Of a DNA stretch of 64,000 nt, positions 11,879-45,900 are shown piece after piece. A program made the position numbers and the translations under genes. This DNA is from a phage: the sequence record PX969468.1. One strand, given 5' to 3'. Position 1 is the stretch's first letter; every line of letters begins with the position of its first letter. Under the pieces are notes generated by a model, which worked only from the letters and a program-made list of their open reading frames with translations, was not told the DNA's origin and searched no databases.

Positions 11879-12067
11879 ATGAACAATCCGGTAGCAAAGA
11901 ATTGTAATAAGTTCAACAAGTCTGCAATTCACACTGACAGGAAAAAGAGCTGGTCACCGGACATTGACGAGGAGCTGGAGAATTACTTTGAAGATCTGGT
12001 TACCAATGCAGGCGAGGTTGCGATTAAAGAATACGCAGACAGGAGGGATAAGGCCGGAATCTGTTGA
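11879..12067 (+). CDS. hypothetical small protein
   Basis: 62 codons; RBS GAGGAG upstream. Confidence 0.4.
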   Translation: MNNPVAKNCNKFNKSAIHTDRKKSWSPDIDEELENYFEDLVTNAGEVAIKEYADRRDKAGIC

Positions 12068-12092
12068 CAAAAATAATGTTACCTGATAAGAT
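12064..12092 (+). promoter_or_regulatory. sigma70-like promoter TTGACA-17-TAAGAT with TG extension
   Basis: read directly; precedes 12144 gene. Confidence 0.5.
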
Positions 12093-12143
12093 CTGCAATA
12101 TGATGTGATACAATTTTAACTTACGAGGTCTACAGGTAATGCT

Positions 12144-12386
12144 ATGTTTAAGGTTAAGCTCGTTTTCCGTTCCATGAATGAGGATTATTTAGAAGATGAA
12201 GGTGAATTTCGTGCACTAGATGATGCAATAGATTTTGCCAACGACTTAGCTTGTATGAATACGGGTTATGGTTTATGTTGTTGGGATGGTGGTGTTCAGA
12301 TTGGTGATAGCAAGATCTTCTACTTCTACCCTGAGCCCGATAACAAACAAATTAAGTATGTTTTATTTATTTGTGCTTTACAATGA
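12144..12386 (+). CDS. hypothetical small protein
   Basis: 80 codons; weak RBS. Confidence 0.35.
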   Translation: MFKVKLVFRSMNEDYLEDEGEFRALDDAIDFANDLACMNTGYGLCCWDGGVQIGDSKIFYFYPEPDNKQIKYVLFICALQ

Positions 12387-12674
12387 GGTTGTTTTCGTGT
12401 ATCATGATGAATATCCAATTTAAAGATGAGTTTGATGGCTTTATCTCCGGATGCTTTGAAACAGGGTTCGGAGAAGGCTGAGTTACCCTTAGAGGGCTTG
12501 ATAGTGCACCACACTTAAAATGGTAGGGGCAGCCAGCACATGACGATGTGACCCCAGCCAACCTGTAATAAGGTCGAGCCAGAGCGCGGTAATGGGTATC
12601 TGGTAACCCACTCGTTGGGTCTTGTTGGTCCAGGACGCTGGGCAAGTCGCAGGGAACACCACCCTGCGGCGAAC
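12387..12674 (+). other. GC-rich noncoding segment with a 26-codon mini-ORF and stable stems (candidate leader or sRNA)
   Basis: overlapping ORFs on both strands indicate absence of stops rather than coding; lies between a gene end and a consensus promoter. Confidence 0.25.
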
Positions 12675-12703
12675 TTGACAATCAGTATTTGCCGTGATAA
12701 AAT
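12675..12703 (+). promoter_or_regulatory. sigma70-like promoter TTGACA-17-TAAAAT with TG extension
   Basis: perfect -35, 17-nt spacer, near-consensus -10; 29 nt upstream of GGAGG RBS and ATG at 12732. Confidence 0.6.
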
Positions 12704-12731
12704 CCACCTATCACGTGATAATGGAGGAAAC

Positions 12732-13070
12732 ATGGCGGATACAACTAAAAAGCGTCGCCGTAGAGGCAGACCTCTGAAAGAGGAGTCCAACGCCATTCAG
12801 CTAGAGAAGAACATTCTTGATATGAAGGAATCTTTTATAGCGATGGTTCCAGAAGCTCACAAAGTTTTAAGAGAGCTGATGTTGGATCCGAAAACCAAGC
12901 AAAATATTCGTCAAAGCATTGCAGAGTATGTCCTTGATAAGGCAGACCGAATGCAGGAAGAATATGATGAGATGTTTGGTGAAGAGGAAGAGGTGGTAGT
13001 AGAAGAGGCTGAAAAACCAGCACCTTTTATGCCATTTACCACAGAGATACAGCCTGTTGGCAATAGTTAA
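12732..13070 (+). CDS. small AT-hook-like DNA-binding protein with acidic C-terminal tail
   Basis: 112 codons from the Met with GGAGG RBS; KKRRRRGRPLKEE (RGRP core) near N-terminus; C-terminus EEYDEMFGEEEEVVVEEAEK. Confidence 0.5.
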   Translation: MADTTKKRRRRGRPLKEESNAIQLEKNILDMKESFIAMVPEAHKVLRELMLDPKTKQNIRQSIAEYVLDKADRMQEEYDEMFGEEEEVVVEEAEKPAPFMPFTTEIQPVGNS

Positions 13071-13079
13071 AATATTTTC

Positions 13080-13108
13080 TTGACAAACTTTGCTTAACAG
13101 TGTAATAT
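13080..13108 (+). promoter_or_regulatory. sigma70-like promoter TTGACA-17-TAATAT upstream of tRNA cluster
   Basis: read directly; first tRNA begins about 60 nt downstream. Confidence 0.55.
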
Positions 13109-13166
13109 TATAAACATGGTCTCCCACCTTTTCTGGCGGCTCAGGTGTAAAAGAAAGCCACCCAGT

Positions 13167-13241
13167 GCCCTGTTAGCTTAGTGGATAAAGCAGCGGCCTT
13201 CTAAGCCGTTGACACTGGTTCGAGTCCAGTACGGGGTGCCA
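13167..13241 (+). tRNA. tRNA-Arg (anticodon TCT)
   Basis: hand-folded cloverleaf: acceptor GCCCTGT/ACGGGGT (two G-U), D-arm GCTT/AAGC, anticodon loop CTTCTAA, T-arm ACTGG-TTCGAGT-CCAGT, encoded CCA. Confidence 0.6.
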
Positions 13242-13245
13242 AATT

Positions 13246-13332
13246 GGGGAGTTATCCCGTAGAGGTAGCGGTGTAGACTGTAAATCTATTGTCATTGCGA
13301 CTCGGGTGGTTCGACTCCACCACTCCCCACCA
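13246..13332 (+). tRNA. tRNA-Tyr (anticodon GTA), long variable arm
   Basis: acceptor GGGGAGT/ACTCCCC, anticodon stem GTAGA/TCTAT with loop CTGTAAA, T-arm GGTGG-TTCGACT-CCACC, encoded CCA. Confidence 0.6.
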
Positions 13333-13446
13333 AATTTATATTTTTAAATGCATAAATCATACAGATAATGACATTGATATTTATCGTCGTTTATACTAGT
13401 CACTAACTGCTCGAAAATCAGTGTCATTATCAGTGTAATTTATAAA

Positions 13447-13537
13447 GGAGGGTAGGGAGCAATGGTGCTCAAGCGGTCTTGAAAACCGTCCCGTTGAGGA
13501 TGACTCGATGATGGTTCGATTCCATTACTCTCCGCCA
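13447..13537 (+). tRNA. tRNA-Ser (anticodon TGA), long variable arm
   Basis: acceptor GGAGGGT/ACTCTCC, anticodon stem-loop GCGGT-CTTGAAA-ACCGT, T-loop TTCGATT, encoded CCA. Confidence 0.55.
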
Positions 13538-13635
13538 CATTGTTGACCTTGTAATTAAGCGAAAGCCGGAAGCAGAACCGGATTATCAAATGTTACAGTC
13601 GTCATCGCCGACTAGCCACATGGTCAACATATTGC

Positions 13636-13735
13636 GCTAGGTAAGCCCTTTGGCAAGGGCGAGGATTTTTAATCCTGAAAATAGACGAGGTAGTCGTTGA
13701 ATACATAGGTGGTTCGATTCCATCACCTAGCACCT
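13636..13735 (+). pseudogene. atypical tRNA-like element (Lys-TTT-like 5' half, ~30-nt insert, no encoded CCA)
   Basis: perfect 7-bp acceptor GCTAGGT/ACCTAGC, D-arm GCCC/GGGC, anticodon-like loop TTTTTAA, T-arm GGTGG-TTCGATT-CCATC, but about 30 nt between anticodon arm and T-arm and CCT instead of CCA. Confidence 0.3.
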
Positions 13736-13738
13736 TTT

Positions 13739-13814
13739 GCTGATGTAGCACAATTGGCAGTGCAATTGATTTGTAATCAATAGGTTGCAGGTTCAAGTCC
13801 TGCCATCAGCACCA
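13739..13814 (+). tRNA. tRNA-Thr (anticodon TGT)
   Basis: perfect acceptor GCTGATG/CATCAGC, D-arm GCAC/GTGC, anticodon stem ATTGA/TCAAT loop TTTGTAA, T-arm GCAGG-TTCAAGT-CCTGC, encoded CCA. Confidence 0.7.
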
Positions 13815-13815
13815 T

Positions 13816-13890
13816 GGCCCTGTAGCTGGAAGGTTCAAGCAAGCGACTCATAATCGCCAGACGGTGGTTCAATTCCACCCAGGGCCACCA
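13816..13890 (+). tRNA. tRNA-Met or Ile2 (anticodon CAT)
   Basis: perfect acceptor GGCCCTG/CAGGGCC, anticodon loop CTCATAA, T-arm GGTGG-TTCAATT-CCACC, encoded CCA. Confidence 0.6.
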
Positions 13891-13901
13891 AATAATAAAT
13901 A

Positions 13902-13978
13902 CTCCGCGTAGCTCAGCTTGGTAGAGCGCCTGATTTGGGATCAGGAGGTCGAGTGTTCGAATCACTCCGTGGAGACCA
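13902..13978 (+). tRNA. tRNA-Pro (anticodon TGG)
   Basis: acceptor CTCCGCG/CGTGGAG, canonical D-arm GCTC-AGCTTGGTA-GAGC, anticodon stem CCTGA/TCAGG loop TTTGGGA, T-arm GAGTG-TTCGAAT-CACTC, encoded CCA. Confidence 0.7.
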
Positions 13979-14024
13979 CCTTTAGTTATACTTTAAATAT
14001 ATACACACAAAAGGAACCTTTAAA

Positions 14025-14294
14025 ATGTATACACTTAAAATTGTAGAACGTGTAAATCCAACCCATACTTTAGATCTTCGTGACGATTTCAACCCTCTTG
14101 CTGTAAATCTTCGAGAGTCGTATCATGAACTAAGCTGCGATGCAGTTGTGGTCTTCTTTGAAGACAACTCTGAAGGGGCAGTAGCTTGTGTTGTTGATAG
14201 CGAGCAGAAGTTTTATATTTACAGAGATGTGGATGCTTACTTGATGAATGAGAATGCGGTTACTGTCAGAATCATCCACCGAGTGCCTCGATAA
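14025..14294 (+). CDS. hypothetical protein
   Basis: 89 codons; followed by terminator. Confidence 0.45.
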   Translation: MYTLKIVERVNPTHTLDLRDDFNPLAVNLRESYHELSCDAVVVFFEDNSEGAVACVVDSEQKFYIYRDVDAYLMNENAVTVRIIHRVPR

Positions 14295-14347
14295 GTATTA
14301 GTCTCCTTTTAGTTAGTTTCGATCTATTTAGGTTACTCAATTTTAAC

Positions 14348-14383
14348 CCGCCCCGTTAGCTGTATAGCTGCGGGGTTTTTTCG
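14348..14383 (+). terminator. rho-independent terminator
   Basis: stem CCCCG/CGGGG enclosing a palindromic loop, followed by TTTTTT. Confidence 0.55.
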
Positions 14384-14399
14384 TTTCTGGAGCCTTAAA

Positions 14400-14798
14400 A
14401 TGATTTCAGTCTTAACATTGATGAGTAAATACAGAGGGATCATAAAAGGTTTAGTTTTTGCAGCGGCTATAGGCATGGCTTATCTTGGGGCCGTGTATTG
14501 GTTTAACTCTAAGCTCAATGATGCTTATCAGGAAGGTGTGTCAGCAACAGAGTTAAAGTGGGAACGGATCCTTGACCAACAACAAAAGCAGGCCGACAAA
14601 ATTAAAATGGGCCACGCAGAGGAGGTTAAAAACCTTGAAAAATCTCTTTCTGATCTACAGGATAAATTAAATATGGCTGAGAAGGCAGGTAAAGAAAAGC
14701 AGATTATCTACCTCCAATCTCCTGAAGGTAAGAAGTCAACACTTCCTGATCAGCTAATAGATATTTATAATGAGAGTATCAATCAGGAGGTTCGATGA
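14400..14798 (+). CDS. i-spanin (Rz-like inner-membrane spanin)
   Basis: 132 codons; N-terminal TM segment GLVFAAAIGMAYLGAVYWF then coiled-coil-like periplasmic domain; stop overlaps start of next gene. Confidence 0.6.
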   Translation: MISVLTLMSKYRGIIKGLVFAAAIGMAYLGAVYWFNSKLNDAYQEGVSATELKWERILDQQQKQADKIKMGHAEEVKNLEKSLSDLQDKLNMAEKAGKEKQIIYLQSPEGKKSTLPDQLIDIYNESINQEVR

Positions 14799-15082
14799 GA
14801 GTTACTGCACTGGTTGTTTTGTGCTTGTTATTGTGTGGGTGTGCAACCAGCGTTGAGAGAGAATACAAGATTGACCCTCCGGATGTAGGAAGGTTGATTG
14901 TTAAACCTCCCGAGGGTGCTATGAAACCACCTGCTAAAGCTATCCCTTTGAAGAAAGGTGCGCCAGATGCGGTGAATTCTGGCATTATGAGGGATAATAA
15001 CCTGTCTTGTAGTAATGATAGAGCTAAATTGATCATTTTGCAAGACTATATAAGAACACTGTTTCCAAAGGAGAGAGGTTAA
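14795..15082 (+). CDS. o-spanin (Rz1-like outer-membrane lipoprotein)
   Basis: 95 codons; signal peptide with lipobox L-C-G-C, proline-rich mature part. Confidence 0.6.
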   Translation: MRVTALVVLCLLLCGCATSVEREYKIDPPDVGRLIVKPPEGAMKPPAKAIPLKKGAPDAVNSGIMRDNNLSCSNDRAKLIILQDYIRTLFPKERG

Positions 15083-15507
15083 TGTCTAAGATTTACGGAC
15101 CGTGTTCTGAAAAGCAGAAGATGATCCTAGAGAACGATGCAGATATTTTGGTGATCGGAGGTGCAGCTGGGTCTGGAAAGTCGTTCCTCTTGCAGCTAAT
15201 GCCACTTAAAATTATTGATGACCCACACAGCTCTGTGGTTATGTTCCGAAGAACAACTCCACAGTTGGAAGGTGAGGGTGGGCTATGGCCTAAAGCAGTA
15301 GCTATTTACAGTGATCTGCCTGAAAACATTAAACCAAAGTTCAGAGAGAAGGATCATAAGTTTATTTTTCCACGGTTTGATCCGAGCACTGGCAAGTGGG
15401 ACAGGAGCAAAAAAGGGGCCGTTGTAAAATACTGCCACATGGAGTATGTCCAAGATAAGCTTAACCATCAAGGCCTTGAGTACACCATGGTTTGCTTCGA
15501 TGAGGGT
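15082..15507 (+). CDS. terminase large subunit, exon 1 (ATPase domain)
   Basis: Walker A GGAAGSGKS and Walker B VCFDEG; reading frame stops at TAA immediately after DEG. Confidence 0.65.
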
Positions 15508-16390
15508 TAATTTGTAGCTCTCGTAAAACCTCCCTAATTGCGGGGAAATCTTTATTATTGACACCACCAACCTGTTATGGTAACATGATAGAGGCTTCGA
15601 AGAGAGATCGAAGGTATGGTAACAGTGTGTTGATTTAGATAATCCGCAGCGAAGCATCCGAGAGGATGAACGTTCAACGACTAGTCGAAAGACGTAGAAT
15701 CAAGCGATTCGAAACGGGAGGGTGAATGTGTAATACTAAAAAATGTATGGATTGCCAAAGAGTTCTACCTCTTGATGATTTCTTTTTATCATCTAAGAGC
15801 CAGGATGGATACTCAGGTACATGCAAGGAATGCTATATGTACTACAGGAAGAATGGATCTCGTAGAAACAAAAATATGGTTAAGAGAGATGATGCAGCAT
15901 CTTTTATTCAAGACTTACTGAAGAAAGGTGAGCTTTTTGAATGTAAATCTTGTCATGAAAGTATGCTTGCTGATAGTTTTTACACAAAACGCGACTATGG
16001 TAAAGTGTATCTAGTCACGAACAGGTGTAAGATGTGTGAAAAGTTTTATCAGATTGAGAAGAAATTTCACATAACAAAAGATGAATACTATCGTCTACTC
16101 TCAGATCAAGATCATAAGTGTGCAATCTGTAGAATATCTCTTGATGAGTATAAGACTCAAGGATATAGAGATTTCTTTTGTGTTGATCATGACCATAAAA
16201 CTGGTGCTGTAAGAGGGTTGCTTTGTGATAAATGCAACAGGGCTTTAGGTTTCTTCCAAGAGGATGAGGAAACCATTCTTAGAGCGGCAGAGTATTTACA
16301 CATTCATAAGATATAGTCTGGTCTGCATGGAGACATGCAGCTGCCTGAAAATGGCGGGGCAAGACTAGCGACCTTGCCCGAACATAAACG
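15508..16390 (+). mobile_element. group I-like intron carrying an HNH endonuclease gene, inserted in the terminase large-subunit gene
   Basis: P/Q/R-like core elements AATTGCGGGGA (15536..15546), AATCCGCAGC (15641..15650), GTTCAACGACTAG (15672..15684); possible guide GCTCTC (15517..15522) pairing with exon end GAGGGT; ends in G; 3' boundary could be 16387 or 16390. Confidence 0.55.
15726..16316 (+). CDS. HNH homing endonuclease (intron-encoded)
   Basis: 196 codons; GGGAGGG RBS; several CxxC pairs and HNH core CVDHDHKTGAVRGLLCDKCNRALG. Confidence 0.7.
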   Translation: MCNTKKCMDCQRVLPLDDFFLSSKSQDGYSGTCKECYMYYRKNGSRRNKNMVKRDDAASFIQDLLKKGELFECKSCHESMLADSFYTKRDYGKVYLVTNRCKMCEKFYQIEKKFHITKDEYYRLLSDQDHKCAICRISLDEYKTQGYRDFFCVDHDHKTGAVRGLLCDKCNRALGFFQEDEETILRAAEYLHIHKI

Positions 16391-17512
16391 ACGCAATTCG
16401 AATGGGAGCAGATAGACTATTTGATGTCTCGTCTGCGATCTCAGTCAAAGTATCCATCAAGAATGGTTATCAGCTGTAACCCCGACTCAGAACACATGCT
16501 TGCCAAACTGGTTAGGTGGTGGTTGGACGATGAAGGGTATCCAGATCCGGAGAAATGCGGTAAGAAAAGATATTTTATCCGACGCGACGGGGAATTTATC
16601 TGGGGAGATTCTAAAGAAGAGTTGATAGAGAAATACACCACGGTTAACGGACTTGGCGTAGAGATCAAGCCAAGACCGTTGTCATTCTCGTTCATAGGCG
16701 CAACAATATTCGATAATCCTGTCTGTTTGAGAGACAACCCAGAATACCTTGCTTTCCTCGAAGGTCTACCAGAGCTGGAAAAAGCTCAGCTTCTCCATGG
16801 TAACTGGTTTGCAAAGCCTGAGGGTGCAAACTATTTTCAAAGATCTTTCCTTCGTGATGCCGATAGAGTACCTCTTGGGTCAGTATCTTGCAGGGCATGG
16901 GATAAGGCAGGAACCGAGAGAACTTCCGGTAATAAATTTCCTGACTTTACTGCCAGTATTAAGGTAAGTAAAGATAGCGACGGATTTTATTACCTGTCCG
17001 GTGATTATTGTCCTGAGAACGTGGATGACGGGAGGTATTCCACAGGTCTGGAAGGCAAGTTCTGTAAAAAGGCTGGTGAACGAGATGTGATCATCAGGAA
17101 ACAGGCGCAGTTCGATGGTGATGATTGCATAATCGTCTTCTCTGTGGACCCAGGGCAGGCAGGTAAGAGTGAGTTCTTAACCTCCTCCAGATCCTTGCTT
17201 GCCGAAGGGTTCAGGGTTGAAGAAGACCCAATGCCTTCCAACAAGTCTAAACTGACAAGGTTCTCACCTTTTGCCAATCTTGCCCAACAAGGAATGGTGA
17301 GGATTGTAAAATCCAGTTTCCATCCTGATACTCTGGAAGCATTTCTGACTGAACTTGAAAAATTCAACGGGGAAAGATCAACATTTAACAGAAAAGACGA
17401 CTGGGCCGACTGCGTAGCTTCTGCGATTAATTTCCTGGAGAAAGAGGAGGTAGCACTTCCTTGTGTGATTCCATCAATCTCATCACCTTCTATGTTCAAG
17501 CGTTTTATCTAA
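16391..17512 (+). CDS. terminase large subunit, exon 2 (nuclease domain)
   Basis: in-frame continuation TQFEWEQIDYLMSRLRS without convincing start/RBS; joins exon 1 as ...VCFDEG|TQFEW... Confidence 0.55.
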   Translation, partial: TQFEWEQIDYLMSRLRSQSKYPSRMVISCNPDSEHMLAKLVRWWLDDEGYPDPEKCGKKRYFIRRDGEFIWGDSKEELIEKYTTVNGLGVEIKPRPLSFSFIGATIFDNPVCLRDNPEYLAFLEGLPELEKAQLLHGNWFAKPEGANYFQRSFLRDADRVPLGSVSCRAWDKAGTERTSGNKFPDFTASIKVSKDSDGFYYLSGDYCPENVDDGRYSTGLEGKFCKKAGERDVIIRKQAQFDGDDCIIVFSVDPGQAGKSEFLTSSRSLLAEGFRVEEDPMPSNKSKLTRFSPFANLAQQGMVRIVKSSFHPDTLEAFLTELEKFNGERSTFNRKDDWADCVASAINFLEKEEVALPCVIPSISSPSMFKRFI

Positions 17513-42984: not shown

Positions 42985-45900
42985 TGCCAATTGCAATGAT
43001 TGATAACATCGTTGCTTCTGCAAGATCTTCGAGCTATGACTGGAACGCATCCAAGGCAGCTCTGGCTGACAGCCTGAACACTGTTACCACCAGAACCCTT
43101 GATAAGATTTTCGAAGGCAACAAATCTTACAGAAGTCAACAAGATAGACAAAAACTTCTCAGATCTTCTGCTGCACCTTGCTCTGTAGTATATGGGAAGA
43201 CACGTACATCTGGATTGCTTGCGTTTTTAGAGCAGGACAGGGACAGAACCCTTCATTGTGCTATTGTTCTTGCCAATCATCCCTTGGAAGGTATAGAAGA
43301 TATACTTATCGACGGTAATCCTATTTCCTCGTATGGGGATTTGGTATCGTGGGAGTTGCATAACGACAGGAAAACCTCTGATCCTTTCATGGGCACACAC
43401 TGCCCTTCGTGGTCACCAGACATGATAGGTAGAGGGATCAGTTGGCTACGTGCCAGCTTTAAGTTTGACCCTAACAAGTTTCCTTTTGGGTTGCCAAACG
43501 TTACACTTGTCAAGGTTGGTAAAAAATGTTATGATCCTCGTATCAGTAAAGAGGTGTATACCAACAACGCTGCCTTGGTGATTCTGGACTATCTAAGAAC
43601 GTACCTTAAATGTCCTGACGAAACCATCAACTGGGAGTCCTTCAAGGAAGCTGCCAACATATGCGACGAGGCTGTAAAAAACGCGGACGGAACCAGTGAG
43701 CGCCGTTACACCATTAATGGTGAGTTCGACATGGACGAAGCACCAGCAAGTATTATGGCAGAAATGCTGAAGGCTTGTGGTGCAGATCTTAGCTATGTAG
43801 CTGGCAAATACGGTCTGCTGGTAGGTGCATACTATGGCCCGGCAACAATGACACTGAGTGAGGACTGTGTTTGCGGTGAGGTTAAGATCTATCCTGAAGC
43901 CTCCTTCGACAAAAGATCAAACACAATAACTGGGAGATTCACCAGTCCAACCAAAGGGTATTCTGAAACAGACTTCCCATCGGTGTTCGTACCTGAATGG
44001 GTAGAGAAGGACGGAGAAAGAAAGATAATTGATATAGATTATCGTTTTGTTACCAGTCCTTATCAGGCTCAGCGTGTTTCCGCAATATTCTTAAGACGTG
44101 CCAGAGCTGGCAGGATTATTGAAGTAACCTGCAATATGCGGGGTTTTAAATTTAAGCCTGGGCGTTACGTTACGATGGACCTCCCAAGTATTGGTATAGT
44201 GGGCCAAGAAATGAGGGTTCTTGAATGGGAGTTCACCAAAAAGGGCGGTGTCAAGGTAAAACTCCGTCAAGATGCTAAAGAGTGGAATGATGCCACAGGG
44301 CAACTTCCGGATTCTGGAGATGTGGATATTCCGATATCCCCGTCCGGTGTAGCTCAACCGCAAAACTTCAGATACTCTGTTCTTCAAGCTGGGGAAGTAA
44401 CTCATGGTGTTTTGGCTTGGGACAACGTTGGAACTTATGCTCAAAATATTGTGCAGGTAAGAAAGAACGGAGAGATTATTTGGACAGCGCAAACAGTCGA
44501 GCAGTTTGTCCGCGTAGAAGGATTGACCAAAGGGTCATATACAGCAACCGTGGTTGCAACATCTTATAAGGGTGGTGTATCTCCAGAAGCCTACTGCGAG
44601 TTCAACATTCAAGCACCTGAAGCTCCTGTTTCTGTAGAAGTTAAGCAGGGATACTTTGCTATCACCTTGATTCCGCACAGCAGGGACTTAGCAAGTGTAA
44701 GCACCCAGTATGATTTTTGGACATCTGGTATGACAAGGTTGCCTGACACAAGTGATGCAACCGTTACTTCAAAAGCCACCCGTATGGGTGTTGGTTCAAC
44801 TTGGACATCTGAAGGTCTGCAGAACGATAAGATTTATTATTGGTATATTCGAACCACAAACGCTTTTGGTAGTTCTCAGTTTGTAGAATGCGCTGCACGC
44901 TGCTACACCTCTATTGAAGATTTGATGCCTCAGATAGATGCTGAATTTAAAAAGACAGAAACTTATAAAGAGTTGATGAGCACTTTAGATTCCTCTATCG
45001 AGGAGGTTGAAAATCGTGTCATAGAGCTTAACAAGTACATGGACGGAAGGGTAGATGAGGCATTCCAACAACTTGGAGATAGGATAGGTGCGGTAGTTAC
45101 AGAGACAACTCAGAAGTTTGAGGATGTCAATGGAAATATCACAGCTCTGGATAGGAAACTTGTTGCTGCACAGAACAAGTTCACCAACGATCTGAACACT
45201 GAAAGTGGAAGACTGGCATCCCTGATCGAGACAACCAATAAAGCAACCACTGATCTTCTGAACAAAAAGACAGAGGCTTTAGACGAGAAATTGGTTGCAG
45301 CCAAAGGGGAGTTGGTAGAACAAATAAGTGGTGTGGAGAGCGGATACCTTGCCGGAGATAAAACTCTAGATGGCAAGATCAATACCCAGAGAACGGAACT
45401 TGATGCAAGCATCTTAAGCACCAACCAGGCGACAGTGGATCTTCTCAACAGGACATCTGAAACTCTGGATCAAAAGATCAGTCAGACAAACGCGACGGTA
45501 TCTAAGAACTATACCACCCTTGATGGTAAGATAACTACCGCAAAAACTGATCTCAATACCTTGATTGCCAATACCAACAAGGCCACCACAGATTTGTTGA
45601 ATCAGAAAACCTCTGCACTGTCGGAGCAGATAACTTCTGCACGTGGGGAAATTTCTACCAACAAACAGGCGATTAAGGATTTAGATGGGAAGCTGACCTC
45701 CACAAAAACAGCACTGGACGCTACAATCTCCGATACCAACAAAGCAACCGTGGATCTTATTAACGGCACAGCGTCAGCTATTCGTCAAGAACTTGCTGTT
45801 GCTAAGCAGGAGATCATTGATGATGTCGGTGATGTGTCAGAGCTTAGAGCTGCAGTAGCTACAACATCTAAGGCTGTGACAGACTTAGAGGGCAAAGTAA

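Follow-up and report, generated by a model that had tools for sequence, protein, structure and literature searches.

The phage DNA of sequence record PX969468.1, analysed as a stretch of 64,000 nucleotides (hereafter the window, to which all positions refer unless a relative is named), carries between 13167 and 13978 six genes for transfer RNAs (tRNAs) and, among them, a seventh tRNA-shaped RNA that we call X. The cluster very probably serves to supply the phage with tRNAs for codons that are rare in its host Escherichia coli. Codon supplementation is the best-supported function of the six tRNAs because the five codons that are most enriched in the phage, AGA, AGG, AUA, ACA and CCU, are all read by the cluster. 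An earlier interpretation, made from the letters of the DNA (the sequence-only reading), had seen in the locus a compact tRNA cluster that serves translation and may also bypass host defences; the part on translation stood, and the part on defence bypass is unproven and mostly disfavoured by the sequence.

Codons were counted with one simple caller of open reading frames (ORFs) in the window (62 ORFs, 18.6 k codons) and in E. coli K-12, for which a 50-kb sample (44 ORFs, 14.9 k codons) and not the whole genome was the reference; the codons cognate to each tRNA were set by wobble assumptions from the known E. coli isoacceptors. When the 61 codons are ranked by the ratio of phage to host usage, AGA (10.6-fold), AGG (9.5-fold), AUA (5.4-fold), ACA (4.5-fold) and CCU (3.3-fold) occupy ranks 1 to 5 in this order, and the other enriched cognate codons are UCU (2.2-fold, rank 8), ACU (2.1-fold, rank 10), UCA (1.9-fold, rank 11), UAC (1.7-fold, rank 14) and UAU (1.5-fold, rank 19). 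If 14 of the 61 codons are counted as cognate, all of the top five would fall among them by chance with a probability of C(14,5)/C(61,5), or ~3e-4 (hypergeometric). The comparison of codon usage, which had been proposed in the sequence-only reading, thus shows the tRNAs to match the codon demand of the phage, and the effect is stronger in the late genes: the cognate rare codons occur at higher frequency in the morphogenesis genes downstream than in the small ORFs upstream. The tRNAs that were kept in every isolate examined, Arg, Thr and the Ile2 discussed below, serve the four most enriched codons, and those lost or disrupted in isolates, Tyr, Ser and Pro, serve less enriched ones.

Several points weigh against codon supply as the function. 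The host reference is the 50-kb sample just mentioned; the codon enrichment is a correlation, and A/T-rich phages enrich codons ending in A or U anyway; the promoter of the cluster is a consensus match only; and, in the discussion of one study, the estimated host and phage tRNA abundances in infection, set against the codon frequencies of the mRNAs made, are said not to support codon optimisation directly (PMC11464382). Since the Tyr codons are enriched just 1.5- to 1.7-fold and the Lys codon AAA, with a ratio of 1.06, is not enriched, codon supply explains tRNA-Tyr poorly and X not at all.

From the observed genes, anticodons, homology, codon statistics and natural gene losses we infer a transcription start, processing, modification (lysidine, cmo5U and mnm5U) and a translational benefit, which would be connected in the following way. 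Host RNA polymerase would transcribe a polycistronic operon, which immediately precedes the block of lysis and morphogenesis genes, from the near-consensus sigma-70 promoter at 13080. The transcript would span the six tRNAs, X, the two spacers with RNA structure and a small ORF and would end near 14380 (Table 1). Host enzymes would cut this precursor into mature tRNAs with the CCA already encoded, upon which AGA and AGG would be decoded by Arg-UCU, AUA by Ile2 (carrying lysidine), ACA by Thr-UGU, CCU and CCA by Pro-UGG, UCU and UCA by Ser-UGA, and UAY by Tyr. The phage, with 44% G+C, uses these codons far more than E. coli does, chiefly in its large late genes.

Table 1. Elements of the putative transcription unit around the tRNA cluster, in order of position in the window (RF00005, Rfam tRNA model).
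Feature	Positions	Strand	Characteristics
Predicted sigma-70 promoter "PtRNA"	13080..13108	+	TTGACA-17-TAATAT, preceded by the A/T-rich stretch AAAATATTTTC
Leader, promoter to first tRNA	13109..13166	+	No significant fold (z = +0.74)
tRNA-Arg(UCU)	13167..13241	+	Reads AGA, AGG; loop CUUCUAA, as in E. coli argU; RF00005 67.8 bits
tRNA-Tyr(GUA), class II	13246..13332	+	Loop CUGUAAA, as in tyrU; RF00005 29.9 bits
Long hairpin of spacer 1 (Tyr-Ser)	13352..13443	+	Minimum free energy -26.7 kcal/mol, z = -4.6
tRNA-Ser(UGA), class II	13447..13537	+	ARAGORN; loop CUUGAAA, as in serT
Structured RNA of spacer 2 (Ser-proximal)	13541..13629	+	Closing helix TGTTGACC/GGTCAACA
X, tRNA-shaped RNA	13636..13734	+	Odd ARAGORN call ("4-base anticodon"); RF00005 35.5 bits
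tRNA-Thr(UGU)	13739..13814	+	Loop UUUGUAA, host CUUGUAA; RF00005 77.1 bits
tRNA-Ile2(CAU), as assigned here	13816..13890	+	Loop CUCAUAA; RF00005 60.0 bits; GenBank label "Met"
tRNA-Pro(UGG)	13902..13978	+	Loop UUUGGGA, as in proM; RF00005 66.4 bits
ORF of 89 amino acids	14025..14294	+	Matches phrog_8729 (unknown function); kept in relatives
Intrinsic-terminator-like hairpin	14350..14382	+	GCCCCGU..GCGGGGU followed by a U run; fold of the region z = -2.35

Judged by its sequence, the window comes from a Vequintavirus, an rV5-like phage of E. coli: about 1.7 kb at the cluster share 99.5% identity with Vequintavirus phages, ECP32 and EduardKellenberger among them, and 96-98% with many others. In 2013 six tRNAs and a promoter named "PtRNA" had already been reported for phage rV5 (Kropinski et al. 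2013, PMC3606486), and because this paper gives the same six tRNAs and PtRNA the cluster is already known; as such it is a published, ordinary locus. The cluster as described changes nothing, and the codon-supply explanation fits it unusually cleanly.

ARAGORN recovers all six genes with the anticodons given in the sequence-only reading (Arg-TCT, Tyr-GTA, Ser-TGA, Thr-TGT, CAT and Pro-TGG), and the boundaries drawn there by hand agree to the nucleotide. CCA is encoded at the 3' end of all six, and two of the genes, Thr and the CAT gene, do lie 1 nucleotide apart, both as had been claimed. In the full 64-kb window ARAGORN made seven calls, all on the plus strand and within the limits of the cluster, and found no further tRNA beyond these; the gaps within the cluster, X included, measure in order 4, 114, 98, 4, 1 and 11 nucleotides. 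At its curated threshold (cut-off 29 bits) the Rfam model RF00005 finds Thr, Arg, Pro, the CAT gene, Tyr and X. tRNA-Ser stays under this cut-off and has as its best Rfam match tRNA-Sec, with 41.5 bits versus a cut-off of 47; its homologs carry the annotation tRNA-Ser in phage D6 and in T5-like phages, and the authors of the rV5 paper likewise depended on ARAGORN for finding it (PMC3606486). All six anticodon loops have 7 nucleotides, U33 and a purine at position 37. Over their whole length the six tRNAs are ~63-76% identical to the host isoacceptors, from which they differ in the stems, and the unit formed by Thr and Ile2 has ~86% identity to its counterpart in T4-like phages, where Thr and Ile adjoin as well.

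The gene with the anticodon CAT had been left as "Met/Ile-CAT" in the sequence-only reading, of which the Ile part stands and the Met part falls. By its homology to ileX, its identity pairs and the enrichment of AUA it is assigned to the ileX type of tRNA-Ile2, which would read AUA, and not to tRNA-Met. All the best E. coli matches listed for it are annotated as tRNA-Ile, and 5345 of the 5426 complete genomes contain a match. It is identical to K-12 ileX at 58 of 76 positions and to a provisional sequence of the elongator metT at 51 of 81. The anticodon arm GCGA-CUCAUAA-UCGC, comprising the loop and four stem pairs, is common to the gene and ileX. The acceptor strands GGCCCUG and CAGGGCC form the pairs C4:G69 and C5:G68, again as in ileX; these are reportedly the identity pairs of TilS, and lysidine is presumed to be introduced at the CAU anticodon by the TilS of the host. 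The position of AUA as third most enriched codon is consistent with the Ile2 identity, and the corresponding gene of T4, where T4-like phages have the same Thr-CAT unit, is the classical tRNA-Ile. In E. coli, ileX and ileY resemble the phage gene in the CAU loop, the four stem pairs and the two acceptor pairs and differ from it in the D and T arms, which have diverged; ileZ from the prophages of Stx phages matches it with 74%. The label "tRNA-Met", which is found in most GenBank records and in the rV5 paper, where the presence of this tRNA was called "seemingly unwarranted" (PMC3606486), is a mis-annotation. The re-assignment to Ile2 clears up the puzzle of the unwarranted tRNA-Met, and with it a mistake that recurs in the annotation of such genes.

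Natural variants show which parts of the cluster can be lost. tRNA-Arg was retained in every relative examined. Two independent deletions, one in phage V18 and one in O157 typing phage 4, affect Tyr, Ser, X and the spacer 2 between Ser and X: in both, the 5' portion of tRNA-Tyr runs directly into the 3' end of X, giving chimeras with mismatched acceptor stems, and both remove tRNA-Ser together with spacer 2. In V18 (locus L008, ~1452-1546) Tyr and X are joined within their variable arms, in typing phage 4 (locus L023, ~1011-1232) within the T-arm sequence TCCATCAC, which is common to the two. In phage VB-EcoM-WM an ORF for an HNH endonuclease of 113 amino acids (PF01844; locus L002, 1738-2079) sits in tRNA-Pro, where it replaces C25-U32, and V18 has a short scar at the same site (L008, ~1700-1790); when ARAGORN was run on VB-EcoM-WM and V18, tRNA-Pro was no longer called. 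A splicing intron was considered for the insert in VB-EcoM-WM and rejected, the 5' strand of the anticodon stem being replaced and not restored. The tRNA-Tyr of phage NHEP1 has a compensatory change from G3:C70 to U:A. In NHEP1 (locus L003, 1043-1172) and in typing phage 4, 126 additional bases also separate tRNA-Arg from a tRNA-Tyr that has diverged.

The sequence-only reading had placed the cluster behind TTGACA-17-TAATAT, and these elements are present as described, with TTGACA at 13080-13085, a spacer of 17 nucleotides and TAATAT at 13103-13108, which together match the consensus at 10 of 12 positions. The promoter itself stays a prediction because promoter-like sites are no commoner in the region 12000-15500 than in shuffled sequence (10 versus 7.1 +/- 2.5). 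The prediction of a sigma-70 promoter at 13080 is based on its position, the perfect -35 hexamer, the A/T-rich sequence upstream, the invariance of the site, which is unchanged in the divergent relative L011, in V18 and in typing phage 4, and the call in the rV5 paper, whose Table S4 gives the computationally called PtRNA as TTGACAAACTTTGCTTAACAGTGTAatAT (PMC3606486). The leader is nearly invariant among the relatives, as is the whole region. At the other end there is no terminator between tRNA-Pro and the ORF of 89 amino acids, which is therefore probably co-transcribed with the tRNAs, and the hairpin with its U run at 14350-14382 is probably the end of the transcription unit. A terminator scan did not pick up this hairpin, probably because its stem is interrupted by a bulge. 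Near-consensus sigma-70-like sites are also found at 12064-12092, 12377-12405 and 12675-12703, ahead of the small ORFs leading up to the tRNA operon; two sites of this series have TTGACA-17 and an extended -10, and one matches at 11 of 12 positions.

That the primary function of the cluster is to bypass defence, by replacing host tRNAs cut by the AriB of PARIS, the PtuAB of retron Eco7 (Tyr) or PrrC (Lys), either with variant sequences that resist the nucleases or by the sheer quantity transcribed from a strong promoter, has its precedent in T5. The tRNAs Lys, Thr and Asn of T5 neutralise PARIS, the AriB of which targets Lys-UUU, Thr-UGU and Asn-GUU; T5-like phages escape retron Eco7 with any tRNA-Tyr that is transcribed from a strong phage promoter; and PrrC is overcome by tRNA-Lys. 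In the cluster, anticodons matching nuclease-targeted host tRNAs are found in Tyr-GUA (Eco7), Thr-UGU (PARIS) and the UUU loop of X (PARIS, PrrC), the latter two elements being only 4 nucleotides apart, and joint overexpression of the tRNA-Lys and tRNA-Thr of T5 sufficed to bring back cell growth under PARIS. A bypass would also suit the weak justification of tRNA-Tyr by codon usage, the differences from the host isoacceptors in the stems and the gain and loss of accessory tRNAs among isolates, which fits fluctuating selection. The overlap of the anticodons with nuclease targets, from which the sequence-only reading had argued, carries no information, however, because most tRNA species are now reported to be targets of nucleases, so that almost any set of tRNAs overlaps with them: to the published tRNase targets Lys, Thr, Asn, Tyr, Pro, Met, Ser, Gln, Val, Gly and Ala come Arg, His and Asp, the targets of the colicin tRNases.

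Comparison at the positions recognised by the nucleases, another suggestion of that reading, gave a mostly negative answer. Five of the six tRNAs (Arg, Tyr, Ser, Ile2 and Pro) have exactly the anticodon loop of their K-12 isoacceptor; the loop of Thr differs by C32U only. AriB requires U36-A-A-U-C/A41 and U16, and U39A, A41C and U16C give resistance; the phage Thr-UGU has U16, U39, C40 and A41 and thus all mapped determinants, as in the host, and the one substitution of an AriB determinant in the cluster is C41 in X. Moreover, phages of the genus Vequintavirus are sensitive to the HEPN tRNase Ec2ApeA, Vequintavirinae are restricted by the tRNA-cutting retron Eco2, and the core tRNAs Arg-UCU and Ile2 are exactly those predicted by codon demand. 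A search of the literature gave no experiment in which Vequintavirinae had been set against PARIS, PrrC or Eco7. We therefore consider defence bypass unlikely as the primary function. For Tyr, the gene of which is lost in some isolates and the codons of which are little enriched (see above), a bypass by supply is plausible by analogy with T5, and a role of the Lys-like X in bypass is plausible too. With nuclease determinants like those of the host, the cluster is a negative sequence test of the anti-defence idea for phage tRNAs. In the P1-like phage D6 (locus L006, 582-735) a tRNA-Asn(GTT) and a tRNA-Thr(TGT), two of the three reported AriB targets, adjoin each other.

X has the loop UUUUUAA, an extra hairpin ACGA-GGUAG-UCGU, the discriminator A and a 3' end that reads CC-U and not CCA. 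In GenBank it is labelled tRNA-Lys, tRNA-OTHER, tRNA-TERM, "tRNA-???(atcc)" or not at all, and a search of the literature found no description of it. Homologs, 16 of them distinct, occur in at least five genera of Vequintavirinae (Vequinta-, Avuna-, Henuna-, Seuna- and Mydovirus) and were also drawn from IMG/VR contigs. On their alignment the cloverleaf and the elbow pair 19:56 were tested for covariation, with slid partners and shuffles as controls. In the alignment 99.1% of the cells are paired, compared to 31-47% with slid partners; 10 of the 22 pairs show double-sided changes, and none of 500 shuffles reached the observed covariation score. At 19:56, 12 sequences have G:C and 4 have U:A. 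X is a selected L-shaped RNA, and because its helices covary it is not a decaying pseudogene. A bacterial origin was dismissed after an exact-pattern scan for the conserved 3' motif of X in 185,579 bacterial and archaeal genomes had given no match. tRNA-Sec and allo-tRNA were dismissed as well: covariation gives X an acceptor/T-stem of 7/5 and not of 8/4, 9/3 or 8/5, and Rfam listed no tRNA-Sec match for it at E <= 1.

In the anticodon arm X departs from canonical tRNAs. From G26 to G44 the arm has 17-18 nucleotides versus 19. Its loop reads UUUUUAA in rV5 and UUUAUAA in Avunavirus; Henunavirus-like phages have CAUCAAA or AAUCAAG, and Seuna- and Mydovirus have CAUCCA, CAUCA, CAGCCA or CCUCCA. 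Among the homologs the loop is 5-7 nucleotides long, or 7-8 if the closing pair opens, and a pair 31:39 that covaries (C:G to U:A) would leave only 5. The discriminator is A, C or U, and A8 and U14 are invariant where tRNAs near-universally have U8 and A14. The extra hairpin, which covaries (ACGA/UCGU, ACGG/CCGU, CCCUCC/GGGAGG, UCCCCC/GGGGGA), stands between the conserved single strands GAAAAUA and AAUACAU (flanks of 6-9 nucleotides), unlike in class II tRNAs. X always adjoins another tRNA, usually Thr-UGU as here. A canonical-looking loop of 7 nucleotides with the motif UAAUC occurs only in the X of the two E. coli-infecting genera, in both of which C41 comes next, and a change of A41 to C has been reported to inhibit AriB substantially. 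Across the family the role of X is probably not ordinary decoding.

Two spacers of the cluster are structured as well. Spacer 1 folds into a long hairpin with the core arms ATAATGACATTGAT (13365-13378) and ATCAGTGTCATTAT (13417-13430); L011 shows two compensatory base pairs in this hairpin, and phage nomo shows a G.U intermediate. The hairpin may be a site of RNA processing, with an RNase III-type cut as a guess. An internal promoter at 13368-13397 was considered for spacer 1 and rejected, since its -35 hexamer is not conserved in L011 and the overlapping hairpin covaries. Spacer 2 contains, inside its closing helix, the hairpins CCGG-AAGCAGAA-CCGG and AGTCG-TCATCGC-CGACT. Its core is 85-88% identical to lambda 44866-44934 (locus L005, 701-769), which lies between orf-64 and S in the late transcript. 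A further match, in the P1-like phage D6 (L006, ~1288-1400), stands directly 3' of a tRNA-Ser(UGA), the same arrangement as here, and the core sequence CCGGAAGCAGAACCGGAT is found in at least 120 IMG/VR contigs. A register-free helix search, used here because an alignment with RNAalifold and MAFFT had put the rV5-type closing helix out of register, found this helix formed in a single register by at least five sequences that are complementary but not related to one another. The D6-type helix has U.G pairs, which would be A.C mismatches on the other strand. No Rfam family matched spacer 2 at the loci of the window, lambda and D6. When all Rfam families were run at a permissive threshold on 12500-14800 and on the lambda and D6 loci, only tRNA-type matches were obtained; the matches to YrlA, Plastid-ycf2, miRNA and permuted tmRNA were discarded as sub-threshold artefacts overlapping tRNAs. 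From these likenesses spacer 2 is taken to be a structured RNA module common to rV5-like, lambdoid and P1-like phages. X and spacer 2 are real, conserved structured RNAs and constitute the residual interest of the locus.

What X does can be read in several ways. The sequence-only reading had spoken of a Lys-UUU-like element, and the tRNA shape and the UUU loop are there; an ordinary decoder of Lys codons it probably is not, given the short and variable anticodon arm. X could be a working, though odd, tRNA-Lys that is charged by lysyl-tRNA synthetase via U35, U36 and A73, reads AAA and AAG and escapes the Lys nucleases by its different anticodon stem. In the rV5 type the loop can be drawn as a 7-nucleotide UUUUUAA with U33 and A37, one base off the CUUUUAA of E. 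coli tRNA-Lys, and the discriminator is A73; X passes the Rfam cut-off for tRNAs, its UAAUC followed by C41 matches the AriB-inhibiting A41C, and the records of the BASEL phages and of Phage 203 label it tRNA-Lys. We find this doubtful all the same, in view of homologous loops of 5, 6 or 7 nucleotides with unrelated sequences, the varying discriminator, A8/U14 in place of U8/A14, the short arm with its covarying 31:39 pair, the extra arm with long single-stranded flanks and the CC-U end. Nor does demand speak for a tRNA-Lys, as the phage shows no enrichment of AAA and K-12 already has at least 5 tRNA-Lys genes in one cluster, and X was lost in V18 and in typing phage 4. A non-decoding tRNA mimic, acting as a decoy or competitive inhibitor of a tRNase (AriB, PrrC) or of a modification or processing enzyme, with an arm mimicry tuned to the host, would explain why purifying selection on the L-shape is strong while the anticodon loop and the discriminator drift. 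It would suit the finding of the tRNA-Lys/Thr-like UAAUC motif only in E. coli-infecting genera and the restriction of X to phages indicated by the empty genome scan, and the authors of PARIS raise competition by viral tRNAs as a possibility. This reading is purely inferential, however; the conserved fold could as well reflect the processing of a multimeric precursor, X always adjoining a tRNA, and UAAUC in just two lineages amounts to one or two evolutionary events, so we regard a mimic as unlikely. The remaining weight falls on a role in processing or on something else.

That X and the spacers are decaying, functionless relics of acquired tRNA cassettes is highly improbable. It would account for the deletion of X, Ser and Tyr in natural isolates, for spacer 2 accompanying tRNA-Ser like a cassette in P1-like phages and for the disagreement of the annotation tools on X. 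Relics, however, do not covary, and here compensatory changes keep all helices of X across genera that are ~72% identical, as they keep the closing helix of spacer 2 in lambdoid, P1-like and rV5-like phages and the hairpin of spacer 1; the covariation largely refutes a relic. We put forward, with little confidence, a joint reading in which X would be an unrecognised family of phage tRNA-shaped RNAs confined to the Vequintavirinae, directed against tRNA-targeting immunity, and spacer 2 a mobile RNA module of undescribed function. On this joint reading X would combine a covarying L-shaped core with a truncated, fast-evolving anticodon arm and a conserved extra domain and would act, in E. coli phages, together with the adjacent tRNA-Thr(UGU), either as a Lys decoder resistant to AriB and PrrC or as a decoy; spacer 2 would be a module of late or tRNA transcripts in lambda, P1-like and rV5-like phages.

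The cluster is flanked by an ORF of 112 amino acids (12732-13070) before it and by the ORF of 89 amino acids after it; neither has a match in Pfam, and in PHROGs both match only families of unknown function. Downstream of the transcription unit follow the spanin genes and then the block for terminase and morphogenesis. Two ORFs, 15082-15510 and 16421-17512 (region 15082-17512), encode the large terminase subunit, and between them lies an ORF of 196 amino acids with HNH-like Cys/His motifs (15726-16316); it could be a homing endonuclease, intron-borne or free-standing. About 18 unannotated GenBank records of "Campylobacter phage" (MG065635-MG065690) contain the locus with 96-100% identity to rV5-like coliphages and are probably mislabelled or contaminant assemblies.

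The cluster of rV5 and other Vequintavirus phages is the same locus: at 96-100% DNA identity, the six tRNAs and their order, the predicted PtRNA and the place upstream of the spanin and terminase genes all agree; the rV5 paper differs in its reading only, giving the CAT gene as Met and not reporting X and the structured spacers (PMC3606486). With the allo-tRNAs (Mukai et al. 2017, PMC5389517) and tRNA-Sec, X shares a long extra arm; its anticodon changes between lineages (UUU, UAU, UCA-like), which a charging blind to the anticodon would allow. It differs from both in the 7/5 acceptor/T-stem, the D stem of 4 base pairs, the hairpin flanks of 6-9 nucleotides and a loop length that is not fixed.

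The anti-defence tRNAs of T5 have Thr-UGU and Tyr-GUA in common with the cluster, in which a UUU-loop element stands beside Thr and the predicted promoter is of a near-consensus sigma-70 type. The tRNA-Lys of T5 has U39A, A41C and U16C, whereas the rV5-like Thr keeps the host-type residues and X has only C41; X, moreover, is not a canonical tRNA.

With the cluster of T4 the rV5-like cluster shares its compactness, Arg-UCU, Ser-UGA, Thr-UGU, Ile-CAU and Pro-UGG, the match to codons rare in E. coli and the possession of stable-RNA-like genes. The T4 cluster comprises Gln, Leu, Gly, Pro, Ser, Thr, Ile and Arg and the stable RNAs "species 1 and 2". Closely spaced tRNAs of T4 form multimeric precursors. 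Order and content differ, Tyr being present here and Gln, Leu and Gly in T4, and some tRNA genes of T4 lack an encoded CCA, whereas all those of the rV5-like cluster have it. The Ile2 of one T4-like phage is 98.7% identical to that of the cluster.

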